Counted from the first letter of the stretch, positions 10,156-60,035 are shown. The stretch: DNA of 64,000 nt from a virus (UHGV-0113858), one strand, 5' to 3'. Made by a program: numbers and translations. The notes: a model not told the origin generated them from the sequence alone.

Positions 10156-10782
10156 CTATTGTGATAGCGGCTTAGTCTTGGCTGCACGTTTTCCTTTGTT
10201 ACGCTCTTTACGAGGTATGCCTGTATATGATGACCAAGACCTCCCGGTAAAGATGTTGCTGATGGTGATCTGCTTCACACCAAACATATCGGCAATTGCC
10301 TGCTGACTCATTTTACCACGAAGTCCCAGTATCCTATCAACATCCGATTCCTTAAGGACTGCGTGTTTGCAATTATCCCCAGATCTGTTCGAATAGTCTT
10401 GTGGACTATACTCATTGTTGTATGAAGGAGTACACCACTCAAGGTTGTCAACGTGATTATTAAGCGGGTTTCCATCCTTGTGGTTGACAAGAACAACTTT
10501 GTGACCACCTTTCAGGCACTCGTCTATTAATTCTTGACCCGGAGGCGCAAGAAAGGCCTCGGCTACAAGGCGGTGTACAAACGGCATCCATCCAGGGGCT
10601 AGTGTAACCTGCCGATAACCGTGACTGTCTAATTGTCCCCACAAATGTTTTTCTGGGAAAGTCTGCATCCAAGTGGTAAATTGATTCTTTGTCAGTACCT
10701 GGTACTCTTTACGCCTTACAAAGCCATAATTACTAACTTGGTACTTCCCCTCCGTAGAGGGGATGTCCTTCCATATCTCCAT
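10156..10782 (-). CDS. HNH homing endonuclease with C-terminal HTH
   Basis: The internal start MEIWKDIPSTEGKYQVSNYGFVRR is the typical HNH_3 N-terminus, with an AAGGAG SD. HNH core NHKDGNPLNNHVDNLEWCTPSYN. C-terminal HTH QQAIADMFGVKQITISNI. Confidence 0.7.
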   Translation of the reverse strand: MEIWKDIPSTEGKYQVSNYGFVRRKEYQVLTKNQFTTWMQTFPEKHLWGQLDSHGYRQVTLAPGWMPFVHRLVAEAFLAPPGQELIDECLKGGHKVVLVNHKDGNPLNNHVDNLEWCTPSYNNEYSPQDYSNRSGDNCKHAVLKESDVDRILGLRGKMSQQAIADMFGVKQITISNIFTGRSWSSYTGIPRKERNKGKRAAKTKPLSQ

Positions 10783-10808: not shown

Positions 10809-11504
10809 CTAGTGGCAATCGGCCCAGGATCGCCCAGTCAGATATGCCCCTGTGATATGTACAGGACTGCCCATGATACGAGCTGCCTTCTCTACACATC
10901 TTACGACCATTTCACCTACAGGGCAATACTGGATGTGAATTTTACCATCCTCTCCAAAAATACCCTCGTAGACTGTATTGCCTTCCGCATCCTTGACTTT
11001 ATCACCATTTTCATCTTTGACGGCCTTTCTCCACTCATGCCCGTCAAATACGCGGCCTTTTGCTTCCCATTCTTTTACGAAAGCTGTTGCCTCTTCCAGG
11101 GTGTCAAACTCCCACTTCTTCAAGTATTTCTTAGGAACCTGGAGCTGGTATTCATCATGGTAGTAAATCAGGCGACGAACGTCATCATCATACCAGCCAC
11201 GTTTGATCAGTTCCCAGTGAAGCAGGATACCAACCAGATCGAATAGAGATGCACCACCGTTTTGCTGGAAAGCATTCAGAAGAGAGTGCTTAGAACGGGT
11301 CCAAATCTTACGACCATCGAGACCAGGGATATAACGTTTACCCGTTGCTTCCCAGAAGTTTTCAAGCCATTCCTTACGACCTTTCAAACCAAAGTTACTA
11401 TCCCAGAAAGCATCGATTACCGCCTGTGCCTTGTCAAGGGAAATGTGAAGCATTGCTGCAATCTTAGCTGCCTGAGCACCATACATGATCCTAATGTTCG
11501 ACAT
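10809..11504 (-). CDS. family-A DNA polymerase, C-terminal fragment (motif B YG through motif C)
   Basis: MSNIRIMYGAQAAKIAAMLHIS...IPGLDGRKIW...QQNGGASLFDL aligns to the Pol I motif B-C region. An in-frame stop lies 3 codons upstream of its ATG. Confidence 0.75.
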   Translation of the reverse strand: MSNIRIMYGAQAAKIAAMLHISLDKAQAVIDAFWDSNFGLKGRKEWLENFWEATGKRYIPGLDGRKIWTRSKHSLLNAFQQNGGASLFDLVGILLHWELIKRGWYDDDVRRLIYYHDEYQLQVPKKYLKKWEFDTLEEATAFVKEWEAKGRVFDGHEWRKAVKDENGDKVKDAEGNTVYEGIFGEDGKIHIQYCPVGEMVVRCVEKAARIMGSPVHITGAYLTGRSWADCH

Positions 11505-11620
11505 GGGACGCTACCACCATGCCCGTTCTCTTATGAACTGCTGCATGTTTCCATGCAGAGCAGACTATATCTTCACCCACTTGGGGTGTCCACCGCTTCG
11601 GGCCGCTTGGCCCTACTCCG

Positions 11621-12022
11621 TTACCGGATAGTCGTTGGGATTTTACCTCTTGCCAAATACCACTCTTCACCACTACAGTAAAGATTGTTGCAAACAGCAT
11701 GTTCTACATTAGATGCACGGCATGATAATTCTATATTTTCCCAGCAATTATTCAATGTGTTTGCATCTAGGTGGTTGACCTCTTCCTCTTCAAGAAGGTC
11801 TCTACCGACCTTTGCCGCACAAATCAACCTGTGCAACAAATAGTGTTTGCCATTTTTCAAACAGATACGCTGATAAAATTTCTTTCCCTTACCTTTGTGT
11901 AGATAGGGCTTCAACTTTCTTAGTTTTCCACGATTGCTGGAGTATATATTACCTTCGTGGTCACAAAAGTATCCGTTTGATATTGGTATTTTAGCCAAGG
12001 TACTTATCTGCTGATTGTCCAT
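11621..12022 (-). CDS. HNH endonuclease inserted inside the DNA polymerase gene
   Basis: CDHEGNIYSS...HRLICAA...VNHLDANTLNNCWENIE; strong AGGAGG SD upstream. Confidence 0.7.
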   Translation of the reverse strand: MDNQQISTLAKIPISNGYFCDHEGNIYSSNRGKLRKLKPYLHKGKGKKFYQRICLKNGKHYLLHRLICAAKVGRDLLEEEEVNHLDANTLNNCWENIELSCRASNVEHAVCNNLYCSGEEWYLARGKIPTTIR

Positions 12023-12170
12023 TTCATCCTCCTAAAAGGAGAAATCATACATAAATTTTTCAAACTGTCAAGCCCATCCTCGCGGATCACTTTGTAGTAT
12101 TTATGTCTTTAGGATTTCCCAGCAATTCAATGGATGCACCTTATAAATTACTTCATAAGGGGGCTATCAA

Positions 12171-14210
12171 TTAACCGTAGGTTACCCCTTTACCACCGTT
12201 ACGCGTTACCAGAGTACCAGAAGCTTTGGTGTATGCCTCGGCGTTTCGTGCGTGGGCATCTCCACTTTCCATGATACGGAGGTATTCACCACCATCGAAC
12301 TGATATGCACCCCATGCCGCGATCATACCTTCGAGGTTAGAACCATCGATACCGACCTGGTAATATTCATCGGTAACACCCCAGAGGCCACGCATCTCTT
12401 TACCCAATAACACCTTAGGGTCTGGTTTAGGCATGTTTGCACAGATGGTGTGCTTACAGCGCCCGGTATTGGTGATGCCGGAGAAACGAGCTGGAAGTTT
12501 TCCATCAATCGCCAAACGAGGGTGATTCAACAGCCCTGTGTCGTTTTTGTCCTCGTCAATCGGGTCGAGAACAGAGCGACGGTTACGTAATGACAGCCAC
12601 TTAACAATCTGTTTAGCCAAGTGAACATCAATAACTTCAAGGTTAGGACACAGCTTGCCAAAGTTATCCTTCAACTGTGGTGAAGTCGGCAGTTGACGAG
12701 CTTTGCGTCGGAACTTCTTGAAGATCTCCTCGTAAACACGATCAGAACCATGACGATGGTCGAACTTGTTTTCCGAGATATTGAACTTTGCGTCACTATT
12801 ATTTAAGTGCTCAAGAATCAGAGATTTATACTCGGACTCTCCAAGTTCTTCGATGTACTTACGCACCAGACCATCAACCTCCGCATCATCGCGGGTCTTT
12901 TTGAACTGGTCTTTCGTCACATCTTTAACACGCCAGAGCGTTGGTTTCCATCCCGCATCGCGGATCAGGTACTTCTTGATGTCGTCCTGGTTCGAGATCT
13001 TCATCGGAACCATCAGGTCTGGCATCTTTCCAGCACGAAGATCGGCAATTGCCTTTTCCATTAGGTCTGGTGGCAATGGGACAAGGGTATTCTCTTTCTT
13101 TATCTGGCTTCTAATGAAGTCTGGCATCGCTGCCGGGTCTTCAACACCATTCTGGATACAGTATCTTTCCCCTGCTGCACTTACATCACCGTTACCTTTA
13201 AACGCCGTCTTCGGTGGACCTTTGAATTCCAGTGCTTCACGATTAACTGGATATCCCAGCTTGTATTCTAACCAATTCCACCCGTGATGGGAAATTCTTC
13301 CTGCACCATCAAAAGGATTAGCAGGGAATTTTGGCTGTTGAGACTTCGTCATCTCTTTGAGCGGGAGTTGAGGTTCTACTTCTTCCTCAATCTCTTTCAT
13401 CATTACATCAATACGGTCTCTCAGCTTTTCAGCTTCATGCTTATTGAATGGAACACCCTGAATTTCTTGCTCAATCATCAGGTAATCAGTCAACATACGG
13501 CGGCGTAGCGCGTTCTTCCAGTTGATCTGCCGCATCCCTTCCGGTTTATCTTTGTACATGAACTGCTTGTCATCAGGCCAGCGAGCACCTGTAGATTCAT
13601 CGATCAGGGATTGCCATACTAACTCGTTGATTAAAACGTCTTCCCAGACACGATTAACGTATTCCCACAAGGGTTGGTTACGCCAGTCATCGATCTGAAC
13701 TTTCTTGTTTGCTACACGGTAGCCCCAGGCCAACAGGCCATGAGGACCTACACGATCTCGCTTCCCGGTTACCGGGTTAAGAACAGAGTCAGGGCAACCG
13801 TTAGGTAATGGACGGTCAGGATAAAGCACACGGCTCATAGAGAGGGTGTCGTAGAGATTTACCTGTGTATCCCCAATCGTCCCCATGCACTTCGGGTCTT
13901 TGAACATATCATATTCAATGCCCGATAACTTCTTCCATAGACGCAGGTCATAGCCAAAAAGGTTGTGAATCGCAATGCCGCGAGGCTCCGTTTGCAACCA
14001 AGTGTACAGCTCGTCATAAGAAAGAATCCTAAGGTTAGCCTCTGTCTTGCTACGAGCGTAAGCTACTGCGCTTTCATATTCCGGGTGGTTTGGGTCAAGG
14101 AAGAGGACCCAATTGTTAACACCAAACTCTTTCAGTAGTGTGCAGTGGTACTTTGTAACTTCATCAAGCAGCCCATCTGCTTCATTATCCCCTATAAAAA
14201 GACCTCTCAT
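12171..14210 (-). CDS. family-A DNA polymerase, N-terminal fragment (3'-5' exonuclease plus polymerase up to motif B)
   Basis: The Exo I-like FIGDNEADGL lies near the N-terminus. The fragment ends ...TRNGGKGVTYG*, just where motif B (RxxxKxxxFGxxYG) would be. The remainder is encoded at 10809..11504. Confidence 0.8.
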   Translation of the reverse strand: MRGLFIGDNEADGLLDEVTKYHCTLLKEFGVNNWVLFLDPNHPEYESAVAYARSKTEANLRILSYDELYTWLQTEPRGIAIHNLFGYDLRLWKKLSGIEYDMFKDPKCMGTIGDTQVNLYDTLSMSRVLYPDRPLPNGCPDSVLNPVTGKRDRVGPHGLLAWGYRVANKKVQIDDWRNQPLWEYVNRVWEDVLINELVWQSLIDESTGARWPDDKQFMYKDKPEGMRQINWKNALRRRMLTDYLMIEQEIQGVPFNKHEAEKLRDRIDVMMKEIEEEVEPQLPLKEMTKSQQPKFPANPFDGAGRISHHGWNWLEYKLGYPVNREALEFKGPPKTAFKGNGDVSAAGERYCIQNGVEDPAAMPDFIRSQIKKENTLVPLPPDLMEKAIADLRAGKMPDLMVPMKISNQDDIKKYLIRDAGWKPTLWRVKDVTKDQFKKTRDDAEVDGLVRKYIEELGESEYKSLILEHLNNSDAKFNISENKFDHRHGSDRVYEEIFKKFRRKARQLPTSPQLKDNFGKLCPNLEVIDVHLAKQIVKWLSLRNRRSVLDPIDEDKNDTGLLNHPRLAIDGKLPARFSGITNTGRCKHTICANMPKPDPKVLLGKEMRGLWGVTDEYYQVGIDGSNLEGMIAAWGAYQFDGGEYLRIMESGDAHARNAEAYTKASGTLVTRNGGKGVTYG

Positions 14211-14716
14211 TCATCCCTCGCAAAAGTGTTATGGTACTTGGCTCTTTCTCTTTTAGCTACATCTGCCGCTTCTTCAAGACTGTCAAAATATCCGCAGTGG
14301 ATTTGTTTTCTGTTAACACAGATCTGCACCTGCCATTTACCAGCATGTTCTTTCCAGTAGACACACTTATGGCCGGAGGTGTTAGTGACCCTTTTCCTAC
14401 TATTATGCATGTTTTGGTTTGTTGTTGCGGGTCTCAGGTTTTCTACGTGGTTATTTTGAGGATTGCAGTCTTCGTGATCCACAACATCAGGAAGCCATCC
14501 ATGATGGTACAAGAAAATCACCCTGTGAGCGAGAAATCTTCCTAACGGGGTGCTTATCTCAATGTACCCTGTGTTCATCACGCTTCCAGCTTCCTTACCG
14601 CCATACTTGGTATTGAAGGTTTTGTTGAACCTGTTTGTTGCGGGCCTTAATCTGTGGTAAAGTTTACCATCTCTGTATTCAAACAACTTCCTAACGTACT
14701 CTTGCGAGAGTGTCAT
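14207..14716 (-). CDS. HNH endonuclease with AP2-like domain
   Basis: HEDCNPQNNHVENLRPATTNQN, plus the C-terminal YFDSLEEAADVAKRERAKY AP2-like motif. Confidence 0.7.
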   Translation of the reverse strand: MTLSQEYVRKLFEYRDGKLYHRLRPATNRFNKTFNTKYGGKEAGSVMNTGYIEISTPLGRFLAHRVIFLYHHGWLPDVVDHEDCNPQNNHVENLRPATTNQNMHNSRKRVTNTSGHKCVYWKEHAGKWQVQICVNRKQIHCGYFDSLEEAADVAKRERAKYHNTFARDE

Positions 14717-33724: not shown

Positions 33725-33884
33725 AGTTCGGGCAACAAGGTTCCTTAATCCGAAGCTGGTCGGGAGCCTTTACAGGAGCATCTTTAAGGTTATAATTAGA
33801 AAAACATCTCGCACATACTACAACCTTGTCAGGAATTTCCATTTCGAACCAAGGAAGGCCATTTAATTTTTTCGTAATGATCAT
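33699..33884 (-). CDS. zinc-ribbon small protein (61 aa)
   Basis: CARC...CCPNC four-cysteine arrangement. Confidence 0.4.
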   Translation of the reverse strand: MIITKKLNGLPWFEMEIPDKVVVCARCFSNYNLKDAPVKAPDQLRIKEPCCPNCGFKWYLS

Positions 33885-59955: not shown

Positions 59956-60035
59956 TTTTCATACGCCTCCCCATGATTTCTCCTTTGAAATTGTTTATCT
60001 TGGCATTATGACAGAAAAAGAGGTCGTGTCAACAG

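Follow-up and report, generated by a model that had tools for sequence, protein, structure and literature searches.

Does the window examined here, a 64,000-nucleotide (nt) stretch of viral DNA (UHGV-0113858), encode a family-A DNA polymerase that has been broken in two, or one polymerase whose gene is put together again by splicing? The gene appears as two open reading frames (ORFs) with an HNH endonuclease ORF between them. An earlier interpretation of the same DNA (below, the sequence-only reading) favoured a group I intron with an HNH gene, and gave a genuinely split, two-polypeptide polymerase as the alternative. The gene is not broken: the interruption is an intron, and one polymerase would be restored by splicing. 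We consider it highly probable (about 0.93) that a mobile group I intron (subgroup IA2), occupying 12173..11490, interrupts the polymerase gene and splices itself out. Splicing in the phage of the window would be expected from the sequence and by analogy to the homologous intron at the same site in phage CB7. As judged by its sequence, the host phage is Mydovirus-like (Vequintavirinae). Unless a plus strand is named, all features lie on the minus strand.

The polymerase is interrupted within motif B

ORF calling in the window returned both polymerase ORFs with the ends that the sequence-only reading had given. The N-terminal fragment (12171..14210, 679 amino acids) ends in TRNGGKGVTYG followed by TAA, and the C-terminal fragment (10809..11504, 231 amino acids) begins with MSNIRIMYGAQAAK. 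The 5' exon, defined by the ORF and by the junction seen in the intron-less relatives KB57 and Mydo, spans 12174..14210 (codons 1-679) and ends in ACC TAC GGT, the final T at 12174 being the U of the splice-site U-G pair. The 3' exon spans 10809..11489 (codons 680-905 plus the stop) and starts with ATC ATG TAT GGT (IMYG). Joining the exons gives a single polymerase ORF of 905 amino acids.

The spliced protein reached the Pfam cut-off for DNA_pol_A (34.6 bits versus 34.3), whereas the C-terminal fragment alone gave a weak DNA_pol_A match below that cut-off (19.3 bits) and the N-terminal fragment alone matched no Pfam family. The spliced protein also aligned with T7 DNA polymerase contiguously and without gaps over the junction (E = 3e-20), with TRNGGKGVTYG^IMYGAQ (TRNGGKGVTYGIMYGAQ; ^ marks the junction) opposite TRDNAKTFIYGFLYGAG of T7. 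Since the cut-off was reached only after splicing and the T7 alignment is contiguous, the joined product is a better polymerase than either fragment. The alignment also bears out the earlier claim that the interruption lies inside motif B, more precisely between K-xxx-YG and xx-YG; in T7 numbering, we take the junction to be at about G527^F528. A peptide of the spliced product that crosses the junction (GVTYGIMYGAQ) would contain GVTYGIMYGAQAAK.

Boundaries of the intron

The boundaries were determined by comparing the window with the intron-less alleles of the close relatives KB57 and Mydo, in which the uninterrupted polymerase reads ...ACCTACGGC^ATCATGTATGGT (KGVTYG^IMYG), or over a longer span ...GGTAACCTACGGC^ATCATGTATGGT... 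(KGVTYG^IMYGAQ; also written GGTAACCTACGGC^ATCATGTATGG). In the window, ...ACCTACGGT is followed by 684 nt and then by ATCATGTATGGT, which places the intron at 12173..11490; the ligated exons would read ACCTACGGT^ATCATGTATGG. The intron opens with UAA, which is an in-frame stop as long as the RNA is unspliced, and its last base is the terminal G at 11490. Excision of the 684 nt restores the frame, and the protein at the junction then equals that of KB57 and Mydo. The comparison with intron-less homologs, which the sequence-only reading had proposed as a check, thus fixes the insertion site exactly, and it corrects two details of that reading. The insert, given there as 667 bp, is 684 nt long, made up of the inter-ORF gap (666 nt), the TAA and the 15 nt encoding 'MSNIR'. 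What had been taken for a junction duplication (KGVTYG/IRIMYG) represents the consecutive halves of motif B, with 'IR' being intron sequence (KGVTYGIMYG in the intron-less homologs); this error left the group I conclusion unaffected.

The last exon codon is GGT in every intron-containing allele examined and GGC in both intron-less alleles. All intron-plus alleles accordingly have T at -1, and the intron ends in G. The use of GGT rather than GGC is consistent with the U-G pair required by a group I 5' splice site.

That the interruption might instead be an intein, a programmed frameshift or bypass element, or an assembly artefact appears close to negligible, as nothing besides the interruption itself speaks for any of them. 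An intein is contradicted by the in-frame TAA that forms the first three inserted bases and by the HNH ORF lying in another frame (offset 151 nt), in which Pfam found HNH_3 only and no Hint domain. An artefact is contradicted by the same architecture recurring at the same site in many independently sequenced phages.

A group I ribozyme of subgroup IA2

The Rfam family RF00028 matched at 12182..11541 over the full length of the model (1-253) with 66.2 bits, compared to a gathering score of 50 (E = 1.1e-15). This match is far beyond chance, and RF00028 was the sole Rfam family to reach its gathering score in the 64-kb window. The helices P1 to P9, for which the sequence-only reading had suggested that the flanks of the HNH ORF be searched, could all be identified.

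P1 with the internal guide sequence (12162..12176), read directly from the sequence, pairs exon GGU and intron UA with intron UAGCC. In it, U12174 lies opposite intron G10, and it should be underlined that the boundaries were set independently by the intron-less alleles. A candidate P10, likewise read from the sequence, would pair intron UGAU (12169..12166) with AUCA of the 3' exon (11489..11486). The guide sequences of related introns at two other polymerase sites also match their own exons, the guide pairing being ACGUU/GGCGU in the intron of phage Berlin and CCAU/GUGG, with GAUG/CAUU as P10, in intron 2. P2 was found by folding as a hairpin CCUUAU...AUAAGG (12139..12160), for which CB7 has the compensated variant GUA/UAC in place of UAU/AUA.

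The 5' strand of P3, UCCAUUG (12128..12134), has its partner CGGUGGA at 11589..11595. This pairing was tested for covariation by picking 5' halves solely by the conserved AAUUGCUGG motif and scoring the 7 nt upstream of it against the 7 nt after P7.2. Among 51 distinct pairs from public viral contigs, on average 6.41 of the 7 positions were paired, versus 4.03 for mismatched partners.

The P4-P5 domain (12009..12124) was obtained from a minimum free energy fold (z = -2.93) and an alignment. It consists of P4 (UGCUGG/UCAGCA), P5 (UCC/GGA) and an extended P5, the latter made up of P5a (ACAUAAAU/AUUUAUGU), a hairpin with a GCGA loop and a hairpin holding the Shine-Dalgarno (SD) sequence of the HNH ORF. 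In the alignment with 11 relatives (A2), 11 of the 21 predicted pairs showed compensatory changes.

P6 is a long-range pairing around most of the HNH ORF. Its 5' strands (P6 AU, P6a UACCU, P6b AAUACCA; 11984..12007) pair with the 3' strands (P6b UGGUAUU, P6a AGGUA, P6 AU; 11640..11662). The same design is formed by unrelated sequence in K54_rec2 (AAAGGCUUCCC/GGGAAGCCUUU, 11 bp) and in phiTE intron 2 (ACAACUUAC/GUAAGUUGU, 9 bp). Rfam had aligned P6 as a local hairpin inside the ORF with the remainder as an insertion. This was rejected, as the comparison with K54_rec2, phiTE intron 2 and ORF-less relatives, on which our reinterpretation rests, shows a long-range P6/P6a around the ORF.

The 3' catalytic core (11563..11637) was derived from an alignment of the 3' halves of 64 related introns (A1). 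It contains J6/7 (CAAC), P7 (GACUAU/AUAGUC), P7.1 (CCG-GUAA-CGG), an AGUA linker, P7.2 (GGGCC-AAGC-GGCCC), the 3' strand of P3 (CGGUGGA) and P8 (CACCC/GGGUG). The RNAalifold consensus has 30 pairs, 22 of them with compensatory changes, which back P7.1, P7.2, P8, P9 and P9.2. P7 is invariant in this alignment because the sequences were selected on it; being invariant, P4 and P7 are uninformative with regard to covariation. The remainder of the intron (11490..11558) forms P9 (11558..11541), P9.1 (11538..11525) and P9.2 (11524..11500), followed by GAACAUUAGG up to the terminal G.

The segment from P7.1 to P7.2 reads CCGGUAACGG-AGUA-GGGCCAAGCGGCCC (11627..11600). Subgroup IA2 is characterised by two extra helices, P7.1 and P7.2, between P7 and the 3' strand of P3 and joined by G-U-A (PMC3428280), and the intron was assigned to IA2 because its P7.1 and P7.2 are linked by AGUA.

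Taken together, the Rfam score, the U-G pair with the terminal G, a core with covariation and the restored frame identify the element as a group I intron. Direct precedent comes from Pectobacterium phage CB7, both of whose HNH-containing polymerase introns were found by reverse transcription PCR (RT-PCR) to be spliced during infection (Buttimer et al. 2020; PMC7344957). CB7 (Certrevirus) belongs to the same subfamily as the phage of the window. The site of its intron 1 is identical to that of the window (ACATACGGT^TAATTGATAGCC...CATCAGG^ATCATGTACGG), and the identity between the two introns is 84% for the 5' ends and 89% for the 3' ends. The leading model of the sequence-only reading is thereby upheld by Rfam, the exact junction, the U/G pair with P1 and P10, covariation and the RT-PCR in CB7 (PMC7344957).

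The structure of P9.2 also bears on the possibility that HNH invasion truly split the polymerase into two separately translated polypeptides that assemble non-covalently, with no splicing. Such a split has some appeal, since the C-terminal fragment has an ATG of its own (11504) with GGTGG 9 nt upstream, and since HNH insertions that do not splice are known, namely CB7_245 and the mobE insertion that splits nrdA of Aeromonas phage Aeh1 (as cited in PMC7344957). The ATG and GGTGG noted by the sequence-only reading are indeed present, but they do not hold up as translation signals: both are part of P9.2 (GGGCAUGG...CCAUGUC), with the ATG sitting within this helix, and they are not conserved, the same intron of SSE121, phiTE and CB7 having CCCTGTTGAAC there and no ATG. 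Furthermore, the insert contains every part of a group I ribozyme and its helices covary, a split would fall inside the motif-B helix and separate YG from xxYG, and the homologous intron at the same site splices (PMC7344957). We therefore regard two separate polypeptides as very improbable.

With regard to the search for relatives, Rfam at the gathering threshold recovered just 2 of the expected introns at eight related loci, the low recovery being ascribed to large ORF insertions that depress the scores. Related introns were therefore located by anchored regular expressions and alignments. The family of IA2 phage introns in metagenomic viral contigs is large (at least 120 loci). ORF-less ribozyme relatives with a long P5 extension and a short P6 hairpin were seen in IMG/VR contigs L013, L022, L053, L058, L063, L072, L112 and L115, and two introns of the family lie close together in several others (L020, L021, L037, L059 and L083).

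A regular-expression scan of the window found no second copy of the P4 3'-strand motif or of the P9.1 motif. A 13-nt sequence of the core, AATTGCTGGGAAA (J3/4, the P4 5' strand and J4/5; 12115-12127), is repeated exactly within the HNH ORF (11737-11749), where it encodes NNCWEN and is preceded by CATTGAAT, as in the true core but shifted by one codon. By chance, about 0.004 repeats of a 13-mer would be expected in 684 nt. SSE121 shares the repeat and phiTE intron 2 lacks it; it could represent a recombination scar, or an alternative pairing partner or regulator.

The HNH ORF and its predicted expression signals

The HNH homing-endonuclease ORF lies at 11621..12022 and encodes 133 amino acids. 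As the sequence-only reading had claimed, it is preceded by an SD sequence (AGGAGG). Its product matched Pfam HNH_3 with 36.1 bits (cut-off 24.8; residues 61-105), and a sequence search of the PDB with this protein gave no relative of solved structure. The AUG lies in the conserved AAUGGAC within AAUGGACAAUCAGCAG, in which GGA provides the P5 3' strand and UCAGCA that of P4. This element is kept even in ORF-less relatives, and its position around the AUG explains why the ORFs of the window, phiTE intron 2 and Pseudomonas phage SPA01 all start with M(D/G)NQQ. From there the ORF runs through the P4 3' strand, P6, J6/7 and the P7 5' strand to its stop, a UAA in the P7.1 loop. The C-terminus TTIR is encoded by J6/7 and the P7 5' strand. 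The unrelated HNH protein of K54_rec2 and phiTE intron 1 likewise ends in TTIR, and that of Av-05 contains TT and continues with SRKA. Since both ends of the ORF are core strands, its translation and the folding of the ribozyme would be mutually exclusive on a single RNA molecule. By nicking or cutting polymerase alleles that lack the intron, the candidate endonuclease would be expected to bring about homing.

Within the P5 extension we found a sigma-70-type promoter-like site, TTGACA-16-TATGAT (12044..12071; 11/12 consensus matches), the best of its kind in the surrounding 5 kb; its presumed function is to start an RNA inside the intron. The -35 element arose by a compensated helix change (CAAAG...CUUG versus CAACG...CGUG). 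Downstream of it, the fold places the SD (AGGAGG, 12033..12028) in the 3' strand of a hairpin with an anti-SD CUCCU (12041..12037), the pair spanning 12028..12041. The same hairpin is present in intron 2 of phiTE, intron 2 of CB7 and SPA01. Among 15 relatives with extended P5, a promoter of at least 11/12 together with an SD was seen in just four, all of which carry an ORF (the window, phiTE intron 2, CB7 intron 2 and SPA01), whereas the ORF-less ones had promoter scores of 7-9 and no SD. Transcription would be expected to start near 12037 (about 7 nt past the -10 element), at or beyond the anti-SD. In such a shorter internal transcript, which folded with -5.1 kcal/mol (z = +0.4), the SD would be free.

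The same cassette design occurs in SPA01 (Pakpunavirus; L007 2001-2847), a phage unrelated to that of the window, in a group I intron of a different, unannotated gene; it combines an extended P5 and a hairpin-masked SD with a perfect TTGACA-16-TATAAT promoter and an ORF that opens with MDNQQ.

In the whole window there were 15 near-consensus sigma-70 matches (at least 11/12), compared to 1.35 expected under a first-order Markov model. Examples are those at 33769, 35419, 35802, 45623, 45973, 46886, 48063, 48395, 51530 and 51979 on the plus strand and at 60032, 33693, 8335 and 6229 on the minus strand. This excess suggests that the phage relies heavily on the sigma-70 RNA polymerase of its host; 'sigma70 promoter' is also a keyword of the CB7 paper (PMC7344957).

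Chimeric origin and mobility

Over nucleotides 1-61 and 537-684, the intron shows 100% identity with the Klebsiella mydovirus intron 1, whose centre holds an unrelated HNH gene of 149 amino acids. The exon flanks are identical to those of K54_rec2 over 400 nt upstream and over 333 nt downstream, that is, to the start of the second intron of K54_rec2. The intron at the same site in Salmonella phage SSE121 is 97.8% identical to that of the window over 684 nt, but the differences are unevenly distributed: nt 22-572 contain one mismatch (99.8% identity for the cassette), nt 573-674 carry 12 differences (11 substitutions and one deletion), and two more lie at nt 20-21. The HNH product is 99.2% identical to that of the SSE121 intron (one amino-acid difference), whereas the polymerase exons are only 79-87% identical to those of SSE121. 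The next relatives of the cassette are found in intron 2 of phiTE and CB7 at motif C, with 92% identity over nt 44-166 and 54% identity for the protein.

As judged from these identities, the window intron is a recombinant in which a Mydovirus ribozyme scaffold carries a central cassette comprising the extended P5, the promoter, the masked SD and the HNH ORF. The simplest reading is that the interior was recently replaced through recombination in the shared core sequences (nt 22-61 and 537-572). SSE121-like tracts, as would result from co-conversion, were sought in the exons beside the intron and none were found, and the identity of the flanks to K54_rec2 places the exchange within the intron interior. 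The exact chimeric intron had no match in IMG/VR or in the phage collection. The intron is missing at this site in about 20 of 32 mydovirus-like records, and this polymorphism, combined with the cassette being 99.8% and the exons 79-87% identical to SSE121, leads us to regard the intron as mobile.

Several points weigh against our interpretation of the locus. Splicing of the window intron is deduced from its sequence and from a CB7 homolog that carries another central cassette. In P1, the exon contributes just 3 bp, and the ORF overlaps core strands (the P4 3' strand, P6 and the P7 5' strand), which could reduce splicing efficiency. The HNH-containing intron CB7_245 failed to splice in CB7 (PMC7344957), so a ribozyme-like sequence is no guarantee of splicing. 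The nearest relatives of the HNH cassette occupy another intron at another site (motif C of phiTE/CB7), and for this reason the HNH product can only be presumed to cut the motif-B site. As to the promoter, the total of promoter-like sites in the 5-kb region was not above that of shuffled sequences (7 versus 8.1), so that only the quality and the conservation of TTGACA-16-TATGAT stand out, and the ORF-bearing cassettes are interrelated, so that few independent cases underlie the link between promoter and ORF.

The overlap with core strands and the short exon part of P1, together with the origin of the central cassette in another lineage, might be taken as signs of decay, i.e. that the intron is of group I origin but that the chimera splices poorly and leaves the polymerase impaired or helper-dependent. 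This also seems very unlikely, given that the core helices are all intact, many viable Klebsiella phages have introns with 100% identical outer parts, the same combination of cassette and scaffold exists in the sequenced Salmonella phages SSE121 and GEC_vB_MG, and the polymerase exons are intact and 98.6-100% identical to those of relatives.

At motif C of the window polymerase (YYH^DEYQ, 11157^11156; TACTACCAT^GATGAATAC), the insertion site of a second group I intron is empty; K54_rec2, SSE121, phiTE, CB7 and Av-05 all have this intron there. It is 771 nt long and 100% identical between K54_rec2 (Klebsiella) and SSE121 (Salmonella), although the exons of both share only 79-87% identity with those of the window. 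This is another sign of recent intron transfer across genera.

A broader, tentative idea, to which we give somewhat less than even odds, is that the intron centre is an autonomous expression cassette moving among ribozyme scaffolds and insertion sites. Such a cassette may consist of the extended P5 with its sigma-70 promoter, the hairpin-masked SD and the HNH ORF placed on the conserved AUG of the ribozyme, and would be transferred by recombination within the conserved core sequences AAUUGCUGG and CAACGACUAUCC. The window could then record an exchange that phage lineages of Salmonella and Klebsiella made very recently, with the 13-nt copy as a possible scar or regulator.

Proposed mechanism

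The group I intron at motif B would operate as follows. Ribosomes on the pre-mRNA would halt at the start of the intron, whose first three bases are UAA. The intron would fold into P1-P10, including P7.1 and P7.2, in line with the standard group I mechanism. P7 would bind a free guanosine, which would attack after U12174, P10 would position the 3' exon, and the exons would be ligated as GGU^AUC with displacement of the terminal G (11490). Motif B (KGVTYG^IMYG) would thereby be restored to yield one family-A polymerase of 905 amino acids. On the full-length pre-mRNA the SD of the HNH ORF would be hidden in its hairpin, and the promoter in the P5 extension would start a shorter RNA at or after the masking strand, exposing the SD. 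The HNH product would presumably nick or cut intron-less alleles of co-infecting relatives, whose repair would copy the intron in.

The polymerase locus and its annotation

The polymerase region is 96-98% identical to that of Klebsiella and Proteus phages of the genus Mydovirus (Vequintavirinae), whose records give the polymerase in one, two or three pieces with 'HNH endonuclease' genes between them. Two free-standing endonuclease genes adjoin it in the window. Directly upstream, at 14207-14716, lies an HNH_3 and AP2-domain gene whose stop overlaps the polymerase start (ATGA) and whose product is 100% identical to a K54_rec2 protein; its position is taken by a putative HNH endonuclease gene in Mydo and by another, unnamed gene in KB57. 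Downstream, at 10156-10782, a gene with NUMOD4, HNH_3 and helix-turn-helix domains and its own AAGGAG starts 26 nt past the polymerase stop. Neither KB57 nor Mydo has it, and its counterpart in K54_rec2 is 80.6% identical. Together with the one inside the intron, three different HNH genes thus border or interrupt the polymerase gene.

Current gene calls and GenBank records for these phages list two or three 'DNA polymerase' fragments along with an 'HNH endonuclease' or 'hypothetical protein', where the correct annotation is one spliced polymerase of 905 amino acids. The exact splice junction is transferable to dozens of Vequintavirinae genomes used in phage-therapy work. The locus also provides a clear natural example of endonuclease-cassette exchange between group I introns of different phage genera, and the promoter and masked SD within ribozyme helices suggest how endonuclease expression is kept separate from splicing. 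The present understanding of mobile group I introns is not overturned by these results; the cassette design and the exchange across genera are of modest specialist interest.

Comparison with known systems

The class to which the intron belongs is already known: it is a typical mobile IA2 group I intron with an HNH gene, and its direct homolog at the same site splices (PMC7344957). The window copy is a new, chimeric member of this class. Group I introns with HNH genes have been described in the family-A polymerase genes of phages SPO1, SP82, Bastille, Pf-WMP3, phiL7, phiI and W31, and HNH-bearing polymerase introns are inserted at sites 674, 676 and 881 in E. coli numbering, phiI and W31 having theirs at 881 and SPO1, SP82, Bastille and Pf-WMP3 at 674 (PMC3428280). 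In the family-A polymerase genes of T7-like phages, IA2 introns start with UAA and have an HNH ORF in P6a that reaches P7 (PMC3428280). The window intron shares the IA2 structure, the HNH ORF and the UAA start with this group, for which phiI, W31, Yersinia phage Berlin and Pf-WMP3 (I-PfoP3I) are named. The 3' half of the Berlin intron is 80% identical to that of the window, but its insertion lies about 10 nt upstream in motif B (KTF^IYG); the Berlin record annotates the polymerase as a joined coding sequence.

Intron 1 of the Certrevirus phages CB7 and phiTE (HNH CB7_52 and phiTE_009) resembles the window intron in its site (TACGGT^...^ATCATGTA), scaffold, P1, P10, P7.1 and P7.2, but has its own unrelated, Cys-rich HNH ORF of 149 amino acids and a short P5. 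The window cassette (extended P5, promoter and 133-amino-acid HNH_3 protein) resembles intron 2 of these phages and not intron 1. Intron 1 of the Salmonella phages SSE121 and GEC_vB_MG (Seunavirus), whose records carry no intron annotation for this feature, has the same site and the same HNH ORF; the 14 differences are concentrated in nt 573-674, a stretch in which the window has the sequence of the Klebsiella mydovirus intron. The Klebsiella mydoviruses (K54_rec2, DP, KP12, KpS11 and others) are 100% identical in the flanks and the outer intron parts, but have another HNH gene, which lies fully in the P6 loop except for its last codons.

With regard to expression, the closest parallel appears to be the td intron of phage T4 and its endonuclease I-TevI. 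Gott et al. are said to have found in 1988 that the I-TevI ORF is silent on the read-through pre-mRNA, in which its ribosome-binding site is paired, and I-TevI is reportedly expressed from a promoter inside the td intron. The window has the same layout of a masked SD and a promoter internal to the intron. It differs from T4 in having a putative promoter of sigma-70 consensus instead of middle and late promoters and a predicted HNH instead of a GIY-YIG endonuclease.

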